Assembly: GCA_024508935.1 (NCBI GenBank) | Contig: JANINW010000006.1 | Location: 91,873-155,872 of the forward strand | Origin: Flavipsychrobacter sp. | GTDB taxonomy: Bacteria; Bacteroidota; Bacteroidia; Chitinophagales; Chitinophagaceae | Direction: 5' to 3' | Length of the DNA: 64,000 bases | In this document: positions 1,370 through 31,027 of the stretch, in pieces | Numbering within the stretch: the stretch's first letter is position 1 | Layout of the letters: each line of letters begins with the position of its first letter | The notes under the pieces: model-generated | What the model saw: only the letters and a program-made list of their open reading frames with translations | What the model was told of the DNA's origin: nothing | Database searches by the model: none | Program-made: the position numbers and the translations under genes

Positions 1370-2665
1370 TTATTGAACCACATCCGTACCTACCTGCATA
1401 TTCAGCTCATCTTTGGCCAGTTGCAGGTTCAGTTGTTGTTGCAGTTGTTTTTGTCTTGTGTCTTTATATGCATCGAAGTAGTCTATAAATTCCACCATGC
1501 TTATCTGGCGGTTTTTAAAGCTCTCTACTATATTGCCGTATAGCTTATTGTAATCATCATAGAAATCCTGCTGCATAGATGAGGTGAGCTGCAATGTATA
1601 TTTCAGTTTATTATAAGCACTCATCACATTGTTCGACAATTCTACTTCAGCATACTGCGTATTGGCTTCTTCTGCCTTCACCTGCCAGCGGGCCGATTTG
1701 ATATTGCCCTGGTTGCGGTTCAGCAAGGGCAATGGCAATGATATACCCAGCCCCACATAGTTGGGCGTGTAGTTACTGTTCTTATCAAAATTGGGGCCGA
1801 GCGTTACGTCCGGCACAGCCAATGCTTTCTGGTAAAAAAGATTTTGCTGCTGGTATTTCAGTTGCAGTTGCTGCAGTTGGTAGGTAGTGTTATTTTGCTT
1901 TGCAAGATCTACCAACTGCAATGCAGAAACCGAAGGCATAGATGGAACAGTTATGCTTTCAGTTATAGCCTTAATGAATGTATCACCGCTTACCAGCAGT
2001 AGAGACTTCAGTTCGGCCTCTGCATCATCCAACTGCTTATCGTTCTCCGTAGCATCCTGCTGCAGGCCTATTTGCAGGGCATGCACGCGCAGCAGGTCTT
2101 TCCTGGCTATATTGCCCAGCTTATATTGGGCATTCATACCATCTGATAGCTTCTGCAACTGCTGCAGTTCTTCATCATACAATTGCTGCATGGCCAGCAG
2201 CTTGGCTACCGTATAAAAATCTGAGTGCAATGCATATTTCAGGTTGCGCAGCACGTCTTTAAACTGCCATTCGCTTATCTCTGCATTGGTACGGGCTATC
2301 TGAATTTGCTTGCCTCTTTTCCCGGCGGTCTTTATCAGTTGCTGTACCTGTATATAATACTGGCCATAAGGAGAGCCATCGGGGTTTGTGCCGTGTTCGA
2401 AATACTTGTTATTGGAATATACGTTCTGGTCGGTATTGAGTATAGGATTATCCCACAACTTAGCCTGTATGATCAGCGCCTTGCTGGCTTCAACATTATA
2501 ATGCTGCGCCAGCAGTTGCAGGTTCTTCTCCAAAAATATCTTTTCTGCTTGCTGAATGGTAAGTCCAAGCGTATCTGTAGCAGATTGCGCCTGTGCGGTG
2601 CGGGAGGACTCCAGGCAGATACAGCCGCATATACCTATGCACTGTACCAGCATTTTTTTAAACAT
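1370..2665 (-). CDS. TolC/CzcC-family outer-membrane efflux protein
   Basis: Signal peptide, coiled-coil helical repeats, 'GISLPLPLLNRNQGNI' OEP motif; first large gene of the RND operon. Confidence 0.92.
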   Translation of the reverse strand: MFKKMLVQCIGICGCICLESSRTAQAQSATDTLGLTIQQAEKIFLEKNLQLLAQHYNVEASKALIIQAKLWDNPILNTDQNVYSNNKYFEHGTNPDGSPYGQYYIQVQQLIKTAGKRGKQIQIARTNAEISEWQFKDVLRNLKYALHSDFYTVAKLLAMQQLYDEELQQLQKLSDGMNAQYKLGNIARKDLLRVHALQIGLQQDATENDKQLDDAEAELKSLLLVSGDTFIKAITESITVPSMPSVSALQLVDLAKQNNTTYQLQQLQLKYQQQNLFYQKALAVPDVTLGPNFDKNSNYTPNYVGLGISLPLPLLNRNQGNIKSARWQVKAEEANTQYAEVELSNNVMSAYNKLKYTLQLTSSMQQDFYDDYNKLYGNIVESFKNRQISMVEFIDYFDAYKDTRQKQLQQQLNLQLAKDELNMQVGTDVVQ

Positions 2666-2757
2666 GCTCTACAATTTTATTATTTAGTTCTTGTGAAAGC
2701 CTTAGAATGAAGGCCGGCATGCATACTTACACGTATGCGTAAACGGAGATATGGCTG

Positions 2758-3147
2758 TTAAGCCCTGTAAGATTTGGGAGGGGGTGGATTGATCTCCCGG
2801 TAAAAAAGGAATTTATACTGATGCGGTAATACAGGCGTATTAATAGCCACATCGTATACAGGAAGCACCGCGGGTATGATTAATTGCGGTACGATTACTT
2901 TAAAATTAATGTGCTTTACAGACTGGAACTTTTTGCTGTGTTTATGTTCCGGGAACATGACCGCCTTGTGAAACATATCGTAAGGAGAATCATAACCGGT
3001 AGCGTGGATATTGACCTGGCCCGGGTCCAGTTCTACAGAGAACCCATCATCGTCGCCATCATCCTGTGCCTGTACTCCCAATGCCATAACATTGAGTGCA
3101 AAAAGCAGACAAAAAATGCGGGCTATATGTTTGGTCAGAAAGTGCAT
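2758..3147 (-). CDS. Small exported/leader protein ending in EINPPPPK (candidate regulatory uORF of the efflux operon)
   Basis: 129 aa; signal peptide ending ALGVQA|Q, acidic DDGDDDG, His cluster, C-terminal polyproline; own TAACTTTG promoter about 20 nt upstream. Confidence 0.75.
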   Translation of the reverse strand: MHFLTKHIARIFCLLFALNVMALGVQAQDDGDDDGFSVELDPGQVNIHATGYDSPYDMFHKAVMFPEHKHSKKFQSVKHINFKVIVPQLIIPAVLPVYDVAINTPVLPHQYKFLFYREINPPPPKSYRA

Positions 3148-3166
3148 GAAGACACTAAATCGTCTA

Positions 3167-3174
3167 CAAAGTTA
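3167..3174 (-). promoter_or_regulatory. Bacteroidota sigma-A -7 element (TAACTTTG) for the leader-czcCBA operon
   Basis: Exact TAnnTTTG match on the minus strand just upstream of ATG 3147. Confidence 0.7.
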
Positions 3175-3240
3175 CTAAACACAAAAGGAAATAATCTGTT
3201 AAATATTTACTTTGTAATTTGCTCAACTTAAAATTTGGAT

Positions 3241-4341
3241 ATGCTTGTTGGTGATATAATAGCGGCAATAGAAGCCTATGCCCCGCCCGTTTACCAGGAA
3301 AATTATGACAACAGCGGCCTGCAGGTAGGTGATCCCCGAGGCGAAGCTACAGGGGTATTATTGTGCCTGGATATTACGGAAGCAATTGTTGATGAAGCTA
3401 TAGCCCGTGGTTGCAATATGATAGTGGCCCATCACCCCCTTCTTTTTAGCGGACTGAAACGCATAGCCGGTCGTACTTATGTAGAGCGCATAGTACAGAA
3501 GGCCATTAAGAACGATATTCATTTATACGCAGCACATACCAACCTGGATAATGTATACAATGGGGTGAATGCCAAAATTGCTGAAAAACTGGGGCTAAAA
3601 AACACGCGCATTCTTAGCCCTATGCCCGGTACGCTTACCAAGCTCTATACTTTTGCACCTGCCGAAGCCGCCGATAAGGTACGCGATGCTATGTTTGCAG
3701 CAGGCGCCGGCAGCATTGGCAATTACCGCGAATGCAGTTTTAATGCCCAGGGTACCGGCACCTTTAAACCGGGAATAAATACCCACCCCGTAATAGGCGA
3801 AGCCGGTGGCCCAAGAGAAAATGTGAACGAGGTAAAAATAGAAGTGCTGGTAGAGACCCATAGCCAGGCAGCCATTTTGAAGGCGCTGGTGGAGGCTCAC
3901 CCTTACGAGGAGGTAGCTTACGACCTGGTGCAGCTAAAAAATGCCAACCAGGAGCTTGGGGCAGGGATAGTTGGCGCTTTAGAAACTCCTATGGATGAAA
4001 GCAGCTTCCTGGCATTGGTCAAAGAACGCATGAAGGCTGATTGCATACGTCATACCGCCCTCAAAGGGCAACCCATTAATAAAGCAGCTATATGTGGCGG
4101 TTCCGGCAGCTTTTTGCTGAAAGACGCTATTGCAGCCGGGGCCGATATATTTATTACTGCCGACTTTAAATACCACCAGTTCTTCGACGCCGAGGGCCGG
4201 ATCGTCATAGCCGATATTGGCCATTACGAAAGCGAACAATTTACGGTAGAAATATTCGAGGCGATACTTAAGAAAAAATTTCCTAATTTTGCCATTCTTT
4301 TATCGAATTTAAATACCAATCCTGTAAAATATTTTTGTTGA
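3241..4341 (+). CDS. Nif3-like dinuclear metal-centre hexameric protein (YqfO/YbgI type, with PII-like insert)
   Basis: DNSGLQVG, AHHP, HTNLD, HPYEEVAYD and GHYESE motifs; ATG 3241 preferred over TTG 3235. Confidence 0.93.
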   Translation: MLVGDIIAAIEAYAPPVYQENYDNSGLQVGDPRGEATGVLLCLDITEAIVDEAIARGCNMIVAHHPLLFSGLKRIAGRTYVERIVQKAIKNDIHLYAAHTNLDNVYNGVNAKIAEKLGLKNTRILSPMPGTLTKLYTFAPAEAADKVRDAMFAAGAGSIGNYRECSFNAQGTGTFKPGINTHPVIGEAGGPRENVNEVKIEVLVETHSQAAILKALVEAHPYEEVAYDLVQLKNANQELGAGIVGALETPMDESSFLALVKERMKADCIRHTALKGQPINKAAICGGSGSFLLKDAIAAGADIFITADFKYHQFFDAEGRIVIADIGHYESEQFTVEIFEAILKKKFPNFAILLSNLNTNPVKYFC

Positions 4342-28072: not shown

Positions 28073-28225
28073 AACAGGTGGCAAAATACCGCAAAACTGC
28101 TGATAATTCCAGCATTCGGGCACAAACATTTATATGTTGTACGGTAAGAGGATGGGCAGTTTAACATATCCTTAATTTGAACCAATGAAACATAATTGAT
28201 GTTTTTAGCTTTATTTTGTCTGCGA

Positions 28226-28534
28226 ATGCGACATTTTCTTGCATATGTGTTCCTTATCATTTTCTCCTTCCAGGTGCTTCCTGTCAAGGAGATAGGCAAG
28301 ATTTTGTTTAAAGCACAAATGACAGAAGAGATACATGAAGCCGGTCATTCTTCTGACGACGGCCCTTCTGCCAAGCTCAAAAAAGACAGTGATTTCTTTA
28401 AACTGATGGAGCATGAGAATATTGCTATCATGCAATACATTGCTACCACGGTAAACACGGCTATTCATCTTTCTGACCGCCTTCCAAGGCAACATGTTCC
28501 GGATATCCTGACGCCTCCTCCAAACTGCATCTAA
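28226..28534 (+). CDS. Small leader-type protein ending in DILTPPPN (candidate regulatory uORF of SulP-carbonic anhydrase)
   Basis: 102 aa from ATG 28226 (ORF opens at 28196); N-terminal hydrophobic segment, His/acidic middle, terminal PPP. Confidence 0.75.
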   Translation: MRHFLAYVFLIIFSFQVLPVKEIGKILFKAQMTEEIHEAGHSSDDGPSAKLKKDSDFFKLMEHENIAIMQYIATTVNTAIHLSDRLPRQHVPDILTPPPNCI

Positions 28535-28653: not shown

Positions 28654-30315
28654 ATGGAACAAAAAACAAGTTTATTTAAATACTTCAAGAAGGATTTAAC
28701 GGCGGGGCTTATCGTCTTCCTCATTGCGCTGCCCCTTTGCCTGGGTATAGCACAGGCATCGGGTGCTCCTCTTTTCTCCGGCATAGTAGCCGGTATCGTT
28801 GGCGGTATTGTCATTGGTTTTCTCAGCGGCTCACAGCTAAGTGTGGTGGGCCCTGCAGCCGGGCTTACCGCCATAGTTTTAACAGCAATAGGCGACCTGG
28901 GGGCCTTTGATATTTTTCTCTGCGCCGTTATAGTAGCCGGTGGGGTACAAATATTGCTCGGCATGATAAAGGCCGGCTCAATAGCCAATTACTTCCCCAA
29001 CAGCGTGATAGAAGGTATGCTGGCAGGTATAGGCCTTACCATTATCATTAAGCAGGTACCCGATGCTGTAGGCTATACAAAACGCAACCACGACCTGATG
29101 GTAGATGCAGATGACGGTTTCACTATCAATACGATCACCGATTCCCTGAGACATATACAACCCGGCGCTGTTATTATAGCAGTAGTGGGCCTGGCCATAC
29201 TCGTGCTGTGGCAAACAAAGGCTTTCAAAAAAGTGCAGCTGCTGCCCAGCGGGCTCATTGTCGTAGTGTTGGGAATCGTCATCAATGAAATCTTAAAAGC
29301 CGCAAATTCACCGTTATTCCTCGACAGCACGCACCTGGTAAACCTGCCTGTAGCTTCCTCTGCCACCGAGTTTTTCGGCCAGTTCACCATGCCCAGCTTG
29401 TCCGGATTTGCTAATCCTAAAGTATGGCAAACAGGTGTGGTCATAGCTATCGTAGCATCTATCGAAACACTATTGTGTGTAGAAGCTACCGATAAACTGG
29501 ACCCGATGAAAAGATATACCCCCACTAACCGCGAGCTGAAAGCCCAGGGCATAGGCAATATAGTAAGCGGCTTTTTAGGCGGATTGCCTGTGACATCTGT
29601 GATTGTACGCTCATCTGCGAACATCAACGCCGGTGCACGCACAAAACTCTCTACGATCTTTCATGGCACGCTGCTGCTTATTTGCGTAGCATCCATACCT
29701 ATGGTGCTGAACCTGATACCTAAATCAGCTTTAGCGGCCATATTGATATTTACCGGGTACAGGCTTTGCAAACCCGCTGTGTTCAAGCATATGTGGAAGG
29801 AGGGGGGCGTTACCCAATTTATTCCTTTCGCAGCCACTGCAATAGCTGTAGTATCGCTAGACCTGCTAAAGGGTGTGGGCATCGGTATTATCATCAGCAT
29901 CTTTTACATACTGCGCCAGAATATGCGCATACCATATTACTACCAGCGCAGCAGCTTCAGCAACGGGGAGCTCATAAAAGTAACACTTGCACAAGAAGTA
30001 TCCTTCCTCAACAAAGCCAGCATTAAAGAAACACTGAATAACCTGCCGGGCAATACAGCCGTGATAATAGATGCAAGCCAGACAGAATACATTGATTTTG
30101 ATGTGCTGGATATGATACGCGATTACTATGAAACAAAAGCTCCTGAGAAGAACATCAAAATGTCTTTGATCGGGTTCCGCAATATGTATAAGGTACCGGC
30201 TGCCGCTTCGGAAGTAGAAGTAACCGCAGACTTGGTAGATGGCAACGAAGTGCCGAAACGCTCTGCCGGCGGTTATAAAAAACTACTGCGCCAACTGGCA
30301 TCGATAAAAGAATAG
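28654..30315 (+). CDS. SulP/SLC26 anion (probably bicarbonate) transporter with STAS domain
   Basis: AGLIVFLIALPLCLGIA.ASGAP, GPAAGL, IVASIETLL, GGLP.TSVIVRSSAN, QEVSFLNK. Confidence 0.94.
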   Translation: MEQKTSLFKYFKKDLTAGLIVFLIALPLCLGIAQASGAPLFSGIVAGIVGGIVIGFLSGSQLSVVGPAAGLTAIVLTAIGDLGAFDIFLCAVIVAGGVQILLGMIKAGSIANYFPNSVIEGMLAGIGLTIIIKQVPDAVGYTKRNHDLMVDADDGFTINTITDSLRHIQPGAVIIAVVGLAILVLWQTKAFKKVQLLPSGLIVVVLGIVINEILKAANSPLFLDSTHLVNLPVASSATEFFGQFTMPSLSGFANPKVWQTGVVIAIVASIETLLCVEATDKLDPMKRYTPTNRELKAQGIGNIVSGFLGGLPVTSVIVRSSANINAGARTKLSTIFHGTLLLICVASIPMVLNLIPKSALAAILIFTGYRLCKPAVFKHMWKEGGVTQFIPFAATAIAVVSLDLLKGVGIGIIISIFYILRQNMRIPYYYQRSSFSNGELIKVTLAQEVSFLNKASIKETLNNLPGNTAVIIDASQTEYIDFDVLDMIRDYYETKAPEKNIKMSLIGFRNMYKVPAAASEVEVTADLVDGNEVPKRSAGGYKKLLRQLASIKE

Positions 30316-30349: not shown

Positions 30350-31027
30350 ATGAGAACACAATATCAATCAATACCTCAAGACATTACGCCTGAAGAAGCT
30401 TTGCAGCTGCTAAAAAAAGGCAATTTCAGGTTTATCAATAACCTGAAAATAAACCGCGACCTGCTGGAGCAGGTGAATGAAACCAAAGACGGGCAATGGC
30501 CTTTTGCAGCTATACTCAGCTGCATGGATTCCCGCACTTCTGCCGAACTGATATTTGACCAGGGTCTGGGAGATATCTTCAGCATACGTATAGCGGGCAA
30601 TGTTATAAGCGAGAATGTGCTGGGCAGCCTGGAATATGCTACAGCTGTTGCCGGATCTCGCCTGATACTGGTGCTGGGACATACTAATTGTGGCGCTATT
30701 AAAGGGGCATGCGACCATGTAGAAATGGGCCACCTCACAGGACTGCTGGATAAGATACAACCTGCCATTCATGCAGAAACAACCGTTACCAAAGACCGCA
30801 CCAGTAATAATAAAACATTTGTAGACGAAGTAGCACGGCTGAATGCCATGCATACCGTAGAGCAGATATTATCACAGAGCCCAATTATAAATGACCTTGT
30901 AAAAAAGGGGAAAGTGGGTATTGTGGCCGCATTATATGATACCACAAATGGCAAAGTAAACTTCTATGATACGAAACATATTATTTCCGTACCGGTAGCA
31001 GAAGATAACCATTTACGCGTTGCATAG
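30350..31027 (+). CDS. Beta-class carbonic anhydrase
   Basis: Zn ligands in CMDSR and HTNCGA; FDQGLGDIFSIRIAGN. Confidence 0.96.
   Translation: MRTQYQSIPQDITPEEALQLLKKGNFRFINNLKINRDLLEQVNETKDGQWPFAAILSCMDSRTSAELIFDQGLGDIFSIRIAGNVISENVLGSLEYATAVAGSRLILVLGHTNCGAIKGACDHVEMGHLTGLLDKIQPAIHAETTVTKDRTSNNKTFVDEVARLNAMHTVEQILSQSPIINDLVKKGKVGIVAALYDTTNGKVNFYDTKHIISVPVAEDNHLRVA

Follow-up and report, generated by a model that had tools for sequence, protein, structure and literature searches.

The metal-efflux operon at the edge of a 64,000-nucleotide (nt) stretch of Flavipsychrobacter sp. DNA (GCA_024508935.1, contig JANINW010000006.1, positions 91,873-155,872; this whole stretch is called the window) raises a question: what is the role of the small open reading frame (ORF) which precedes its czcC gene and whose product carries four consecutive prolines close to its C-terminus? 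The ORF occupies 2758-3147 of the window (stop included) on the minus strand, from an ATG start to a TAA stop (2758-2760), and encodes 129 amino acids (aa). It is proposed to be the gene of a translated, Sec-exported small protein and the first cistron of a smallORF-czcC-czcB-czcA operon. A preliminary description of the window had interpreted it as a metal-sensing leader that stalls the ribosome, an interpretation from which it follows that the proline tail should be the best conserved part of the protein and that the position directly upstream of czcC/tolC should be kept. Both comparative predictions passed, and overall the interpretation is partly supported by the sequences compared. The reading preferred here is that the small ORF is a cis-acting nascent-chain sensor of the CutF/CruR kind, to which sequence comparison and analogy lead us to give a probability of roughly 55%.

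The ORF is a real gene and belongs to a wide family whose tail is almost invariant. Compared with a relative 91% identical to it, the window ORF differs synonymously in 29 codons and non-synonymously in 11, which indicates purifying selection; a chance ORF is ruled out by this synonymous variation together with the breadth of the family. A word-indexed search returned three close relatives, two of which were checked in their contigs and lie upstream of genes for an outer-membrane efflux protein (OEP), a membrane-fusion protein (MFP) and an RND pump, with gaps of 93-97 nt. Among 1.84 billion representatives, a profile search matched 68 sequences, one of them spuriously, nearly all of 95-135 aa and aligned to their own C-terminus; nearly all end in Y.YLF[FY].EINPPPP[KR] followed by 1-13 residues, and the lengths of family members span 92-156 aa. 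Among 68 representatives with less than 50% mutual identity, P122 and P123 are invariant and Y111, E118, I119, N120, P121 and P124 are at least 90% conserved, with identity to the window protein outside the tail of 20-45%. On these alignments Y.YLF..EINPPPP[KR] is the most conserved segment of the family, as had been predicted for a terminal [DE]I-x-PPP.

A degenerate DNA pattern for EINPPPPK, run against one genome per prokaryotic species, found 119 loci, of which 88 pass the family hidden Markov model (HMM); they belong nearly all to Bacteroidota. The genera are mostly of Chitinophagaceae type (Ferruginibacter, Parafilimonas, Ginsengibacter, Sediminibacterium and Flavipsychrobacter, with Hanamia, Edaphocola, Filimonas and Taibaiella in addition). 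The 24-nt stretch encoding EINPPPPK occurs in 69 distinct nucleotide versions among 74, which places the constraint at the level of the peptide rather than of RNA or DNA. Family members are present in 94 of 301 genomes of the window's taxonomic family (~31%; 62 of 151 genera) as opposed to 4 of 401 in a phylum-wide sample (~1%). Pfam and NCBIfam scans of the window ORF and nine family members returned no match, and the sources naming family members offer nothing beyond 'hypothetical protein': the family is unannotated and centred on the window's own taxonomic family. As regards codon choice, 47 of 74 members use CCC for the last Pro of EINPPPPK, the other three Pro codons being mixed.

The weak profile hits and all of the pattern hits share the tail by construction, given that the profile scores are dominated by the tail and the DNA pattern is defined by it. 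To guard against this circularity, ten relatives were considered that the family model matches through their N-terminal or middle part only. All ten end in PP(P) plus 2-7 residues (CPPPDLV, SPPPKRA, VPPPNA, SPPPDACNA, NPPDLFIASCS, LTPPPDIAS, SPPPEHSI, LTPPPDAAV, TPPNAMKV and TPPPDLA), and downstream of them are OEPs, TonB-dependent-receptor-like proteins or an unannotated protein of about 300 aa. A C-terminal proline run is therefore general to a wider superfamily, of which EINPPPPK is the version of one subfamily.

The anatomy of the protein resembles that of CruR and CutF. Its layout is MHFLTKHIARIFCLLFALNVMALGVQAQ-DDGDDDG-...-PEHKHSKKFQSVKHINFK-...-YKFLFYREINPPPPKSYRA, and the hydrophobic N-terminus, acidic patch and His cluster noted in the preliminary description are all present in the 129-aa ORF. 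Residues 1-28 (3064-3147, minus strand, as for all parts of the ORF) form a putative export signal or membrane helix, predicted by AlphaFold2 (AF2) as a helix over residues 2-28 with a predicted local distance difference test (pLDDT) score above 90; one strongly hydrophobic N-terminal segment is present in 106 of 117 full-length members, and a second in only four. A candidate cleavage-like site, VQA|QD, can be read by eye. The acidic patch (residues 29-35; 3043-3063), a feature of the sequence as read, is kept in close relatives only. The candidate ligand or pausing segment spans residues 66-83 (2899-2952), its His/Lys cluster PEHKHSKKFQSVKH being residues 66-79, and is marked out by conservation and spacing: K78, at least 90% conserved and with His as its usual next residue, precedes the first Pro of PPPP by 42-43 residues in over 90% of members, although the sequence between the two is highly variable, and other Lys/His positions lie at -48 to -53 relative to the prolines. 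Within -58 to -39 His is enriched (2.3 per 20 residues, against 4.6% overall), and Cys averages 0.08. This agrees with the earlier remark that the protein lacks CxxC: Cys is near-absent from the candidate sensor region and a His/Lys motif stands there instead. The candidate arrest module YKFLFYREINPPPPK comprises residues 111-125 (2773-2817), with PPPP at residues 121-124 of 129 (2776-2787), in the C-terminal sequence ...YREINPPPPKSYRA. The protein had been called polyproline-terminated; the YREINPPPPK on which this was based is present, but it is not terminal, as the true C-terminus is ...YREINPPPPK-SYRA, with four residues between PPPPK and the stop (1-3 residues follow the K in most relatives). 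With an alignment of 70 sequences, AF2 predicts only the N-terminal helix and coil for the rest, at a predicted template modelling (pTM) score of 0.28; nothing beyond that helix points to a CusF-like folded domain. PPPP itself is rare in the genome (present in 10 of the 3155 ORFs that are at least 150 aa long), and in one E. coli reporter it was the strongest staller of the XPPP series, with residues -1 to -5 modulating the effect (PMC4176338).

The position of the gene is equally regular. In the window, the small ORF is separated by 92 nt from a gene for an OEP/CzcC-like outer-membrane efflux protein (431 aa; 1370-2665, minus strand; Pfam OEP, 6.5e-34), which is followed on the same strand by a CzcB-like MFP (363 aa; 243-1334; Pfam HlyD_D23, 1.8e-41) and the 5' end of a CzcA-like RND pump (3-209), 1044 aa long in the genome and continuing past the window edge; 35 nt separate czcC from czcB and 33 nt separate czcB from czcA. 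The next genes past czcA are folD, a radical SAM gene and bacA, a divergent NIF3 gene stands upstream of the small ORF, and among these adjoining genes there is none for a metal-responsive regulator. Where downstream sequence could be read, a CzcC-like gene is next on the same strand at 68 loci, with gaps of 41-251 nt (median about 85, none below 41), so that the predicted position directly upstream of czcC/tolC is kept. Where the gene order differs, the small ORF is still first: at L031 it is followed directly by a CzcA 77% identical to that of the window, and at L030 and L127 by an MFP and then a different, non-Czc RND pump. At L033 and L128 the EINPPPPK tail occurs on acidic, otherwise unalignable bodies upstream of SulP transporters. 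The presence of one tail before unrelated transporters speaks for a partner of general kind, for instance the ribosome or some other common machine, rather than for a docking site on Czc.

Two further loci, L047 and L052, carry the EINPPPPK tail with an Arg/Lys/His-rich middle and have a methyltransferase-like gene about 280-300 nt downstream and no efflux gene there; each may be a remnant left after loss of the operon. In five relatives (G630:C60, G562:C9, G585:C7, G598:C3 and G475:C3) a single contig holds two family copies separated by 5-7 kb, apparently tandem efflux operons that each begin with a small ORF of their own.

The preliminary description had taken this design to be newer than it is. 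Öztürk et al. catalogued CutF-like proteins by a rule set of fewer than 150 aa, a signal peptide, PP within the final 15 residues and a gene that follows downstream in the same orientation, and found 5,334 of them, 19% from Bacteroidota (40% when normalised), with OEP (CusC/CzcC) as the commonest downstream neighbour (PMC9973294). The window protein is within the length limit at 129 aa, czcC lies 92 nt downstream on the same strand, and PP occurs in the last 15 residues of the window protein, of all family members and of the ten relatives recognised by their N-terminus. The catalogued clusters are Cys-rich except for two, and these two, which are His-only, neighbour HupE/UreJ genes (PMC9973294); judged by these cluster descriptions, the window protein probably lies outside them. 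Furthermore, CutF has been shown to stall at its own PPP (GPPPRL), and this stalling is reported to depend on Cu and to take place in the tunnel during co-translational export (bioRxiv 10.1101/2025.02.05.636593). Given that sensing by CutF and CruR is published, the window family would, on the preferred reading, be a non-homologous, Cys-free variant and not a new principle; what is new here is the family itself, its invariant tail, the His/Lys-type segment and the reuse of the tail with SulP.

The window protein resembles CutF of Rhodobacter capsulatus (DUF2946; cutFOG operon) in several ways: both are shorter than 150 aa, the Sec signal at the N-terminus of CutF has a putative counterpart in the window protein, a candidate metal ligand precedes the C-terminal run of prolines by about 45 residues, and the gene opens a metal-homeostasis operon and has a short structured spacer behind it. 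The Cu motif of CutF lies 45 residues from its C-terminal motif, a distance that its authors read as tunnel length plus membrane crossing (PMC9973294); in the tail, PEPEGPPPRL-stop, the PPP is required (bioRxiv 10.1101/2025.02.05.636593). Nevertheless, there is no sequence homology between the two: DUF2946 (PF11162) gave no Pfam match at E<=10 in nine family members and is absent from the window's own genome and 40 relatives. CutF has CxxxC, whereas the window family has no conserved Cys in the sensor region and His/Lys instead; CutF ends GPPPRL-stop, whereas the window family ends NPPPPK plus 1-4 residues and has a longer invariant block, Y.YLF..EINPPPPK; and the Bacteroidota host does without Shine-Dalgarno masking, so that the output step must differ.

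The likeness to CruR (Bp2923) of Bordetella pertussis, which the preliminary description had invoked, extends further than was proposed. CruR is likewise an upstream ORF with an export segment and a conserved distance between ligand and arrest motifs, and its 162-nt spacer is similar in length to those of the window family. Its CXXC-RAPP spacing is 45 residues, conserved within 1-2, and the addition of five residues breaks regulation (PMC9426467); the counterpart in the window family is the fixed 42-43 residues from candidate ligand motif to prolines. The differences are that CruR has RAPP and not PPPP, with a stall independent of elongation factor P (EF-P), and that it senses copper through CXXC and represses an importer by Rho-dependent termination, its signal peptide being dispensable.

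DUF6660 (PF20365), also of Bacteroidota, combines a helix at the N-terminus with an invariant IWQPP[KR] tail plus 1-3 residues, carries a metal-ligand motif about 44 residues ahead of that tail, and lies directly upstream of CzcA-like pumps in relatives of the window genome; it differs in being Cys-rich (CSPFCxCxCC) and in having PP rather than PPPP, and neither a Pfam match nor hhalign (probability 4%) connects it with the window family. It is absent from the window's own genome. CzcI of Cupriavidus metallidurans, compared here by its published description only, is small and exported, comes from a gene directly upstream of czcC and has been suggested to regulate by sensing metal, but it is described as having no proline motif at its C-terminus (PMC9973294). 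SecM, VemP and MifM combine an exported N-terminus with a conserved C-terminal arrest segment, in which aromatic residues lie 9-13 positions before the stall proline, as do Y111 and F/Y113-115 in the window protein. W155 of SecM sits 11 residues before P166. These proteins differ in that they monitor secretion capacity and control sec/yidC genes, and their arrest motifs are not polyproline. A search of the literature for the motif strings and for DUF6660 found nothing relevant.

By analogy with these systems, the N-terminal signal would take the growing chain into the SecYEG channel, and translation would slow at the Y.YLF..EINPPPPK block as a result of slowed peptide-bond formation between consecutive prolines. 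During such a pause the Lys/His-rich segment, 42-55 residues upstream, would be in or just past the translocon, where a pulling force, or a periplasmic cation bound by the His residues (Zn/Co/Cd-type for a Czc pump), could make the pause longer or shorter. The length of the pause, occurring near the stop codon, would then set czcCBA expression by way of the structured 40-250-nt spacer, whether a stem-loop is melted, as in cutF-cutO, the access of Rho is controlled, as in cruR-bfrG, or the step is one peculiar to Bacteroidota. What we infer in this scheme is that there is a pause, which ligand is bound, which way the regulation goes and what the spacer does.

The spacer downstream of the small ORF in the window (2666-2757, minus strand) is 92 nt long, T-rich and contains three small hairpins (z -1.7): one at 2753-2764 with the stop codon in its loop, one at 2721-2738 (GCATAC-GTGTAA-GTATGC) and one at 2698-2715. 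Family spacers are in general T-rich with C commoner than G, and local hairpins are enriched in them, 24 of 59 reaching p<=0.05 relative to shuffled sequences, a level that 6 of 58 intragenic controls attain; in two more distant relatives the spacer sequences differ and, by eye, there are again two hairpins in each. A common RNA structure was rejected, since the sequences cannot be aligned past close relatives and hairpin positions vary. An intrinsic terminator or attenuator is absent from the spacer of the window, and 0 of 55 loci have a T-run together with a strong hairpin. Rfam gave no match at E<=1 over 2400-3400 of the window, which argues against a riboswitch of the NiCo/czcD type.

Upstream of the ORF, a candidate Bacteroidota -7 element, TAACTTTG, lies at 3167-3174 on the minus strand, an exact match 19 nt before the ATG, and there is no exact minus-strand TAnnTTTG in the 92-nt spacer. 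Both halves of the earlier promoter claim are correct as observations; the argument built on them leans on one match that is not above chance, as TAnnTTTG is not enriched in the window (51 found, 63 expected). The match is therefore weak evidence, of which only the position is suggestive. As a family-wide promoter marker the exact motif was rejected, being too rare on both sides of the ORF to be informative.

Several observations weigh against a nascent-chain sensor. The genome encodes EF-P, in one copy (found with the Pfam EFP profile, after a simple KPG[KR]G motif search had missed it), and EF-P normally relieves stalling at PPPP. The candidate ligand is only partly conserved, with H79 in roughly half of the members and some members devoid of His. 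The spacers are heterogeneous, and their hairpins are AT-rich palindromes 0-90 nt from the stop without a common structure; as Bacteroidota, to our knowledge, do not rely on Shine-Dalgarno masking, the stem-loop mechanism of CutF cannot simply be transferred to them. In about half of the members a Cys (or Ala) closes the chain 1-3 residues past the tail; conserved as it is downstream of where the stall is presumed to occur, it hints that the completed chain has a role. Finally, the invariance of the tail among weak hits is partly a product of how these were found, and the conserved first position could stem in part from shared ancestry.

Such a role for the finished chain is the substance of the most serious alternative, in which the protein would be a small, stable accessory to the pump, comparable to CzcI or CusF and either periplasmic or anchored in the membrane, and would act as a metal-binding adaptor or as a regulator in trans, with the proline tail as an extended docking peptide or a C-terminal stability or degradation tag. 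It would account for purifying selection along the whole ORF, for the middle motifs TGYDSP and PEHKH..KFQ..KHI kept in the close subfamily and for the Cys or Ala that recurs past the tail. The AF2 confidence at residues 81-110 (pLDDT 75-84 without secondary structure) is also what a peptide that folds on a partner could give, and CzcI is likewise small, exported and encoded directly upstream of czcC (PMC9973294). However, this alternative is less likely than the sensor: the same tail stands on differing middle regions before SulP and unrelated RND operons, no globular fold is predicted, and proteins of the CzcI type have no proline motif (PMC9973294). Moreover, the gene is always first, and it is followed by a spacer of at least 41 nt as against the 33-35 nt between czcC and czcB and between czcB and czcA.

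A finished protein could also carry the N-terminal helix and PP(P) tail as a general Bacteroidota handling signal for small envelope proteins, read for example by a periplasmic tail-specific protease, a chaperone or an insertion factor, in which case the genes downstream would not be regulated and the link to transporters would be one of structure or assembly. At least four unrelated families do share the layout (tails EINPPPPK, PDI.TPPPN, IFHPP and the IWQPPK of DUF6660), often with the same terminal Cys or Ala, and CutF itself is degraded rapidly after export (PMC9973294). Such a signal would nevertheless leave the strict upstream position on the same strand and the fixed 42-43-residue spacing unexplained, no candidate recognition machinery is co-encoded, and we regard it as improbable. 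Less probable still, to the point of being hardly credible, is that the spacer is an independent, repressor-controlled czcCBA promoter with the AT-rich palindromes as DNA operators, the small ORF being transcribed separately. Spacers of 41-251 nt are long enough for a promoter and perfect inverted repeats are common in them (GCATAC-N6-GTATGC in the window); yet the palindromes have no sequence in common between loci, no regulator gene is adjacent, an exact -7 element is missing from the window's spacer and found in few others, and the invariant tail would have no explanation.

If the nascent-chain sensor is preferred, this raises the possibility that Y.YLF..EINPPPPK is an undescribed, Bacteroidota-specific ribosome-arrest module, portable between exported sensor segments, which together with the sister tails PDI.TPPPN, IFHPP and IWQPPK would constitute a phylum-wide system of co-translational transmembrane signalling controlling RND pumps, SulP, TonB-dependent receptors and the envelope protein of about 300 aa. 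This extension is tentative, its chances being somewhat short of even. Were the tail such a module, the family would stand beside the copper sensors CutF and CruR as a sensor without Cys, probably one for Zn/Co/Cd, nascent-chain metal sensing would reach beyond DUF2946 into Bacteroidota, and the SulP-linked sister family would take the design beyond metals; were the phylum-wide system real, its output step (Rho, mRNA decay or re-initiation) would be new as well. Post-transcriptional control of efflux has hardly been studied in Bacteroidota, where initiation proceeds without Shine-Dalgarno pairing. The near-invariant tail of 15 residues is a sharply defined sequence and the 42-43-residue spacing a simple parameter, and an unannotated 'hypothetical protein' in about a third of the family's genomes is now a candidate regulatory leader.

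The preliminary description had also pointed to a recurring design, on the strength of a second small ORF in the window. ORF2 (28226-28534, plus strand; 102 aa, ending ...PDILTPPPNCI) shares the layout and is a member of a real family, and a third family and DUF6660 extend the pattern. ORF2 shows no homology to the window's small ORF detectable by BLASTP, and neither it nor the third PP-tail ORF has a match in Pfam or NCBIfam. In the 88 homologues of ORF2 two segments are invariant, FSFQVLPVKEIGK..TEE[IV]HE in the N-terminal part and PDI.TPPPN, with 1-3 residues after it, as the tail; they begin MK..LA.IFL, which favours the start at 28226 over that at 28196. A K[LI]KK motif lies 44-45 residues before PPP, as counted by hand. 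ORF2 is 119 nt upstream of a SulP gene (28654-30315), which is followed by a beta-carbonic anhydrase gene (30350-31027), and in three other genomes that were looked up SulP is again the next gene, at 67-90 nt. The pairing with SulP and carbonic anhydrase suggests control of bicarbonate or anion transport, not of metal efflux.

The third family, which like the others shows no detectable homology to that of the small ORF, is represented outside the window, in the same genome, at C93:34721-35171 (plus strand). It is Cys-rich (LCEN..KP..KCCGKCYL), and 109 of its 116 homologues have the tail [IV]FHPP plus 1-4 residues; the gene lies 88 nt upstream of that for a 305-aa protein without a Pfam match, after which come several predicted lipoproteins. 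In the three unrelated PP-tail families the last residue is often a Cys (or Ala), 1-3 residues past the prolines, which is unexpected beyond a stall site. A 131-aa ORF at C6:6890-7286 (plus strand) of the same genome, with a predicted signal peptide, the end ...FEITPPPADK and a 170-aa exported protein following it, may be a fourth PP-tail gene. Among distant members of the superfamily, those at L009:2096-2509, L010:2009-2398, L152 and L158 have the tails EIYSPPPEI, EIHSPPPEA, VPPPNA and TPPNAMKV; downstream of each is a gene for a conserved exported protein of about 290-314 aa (DSLYI..VE...ILHAEPL.IDLIRDLGARKGE), which has no Pfam match and is an unannotated partner family.

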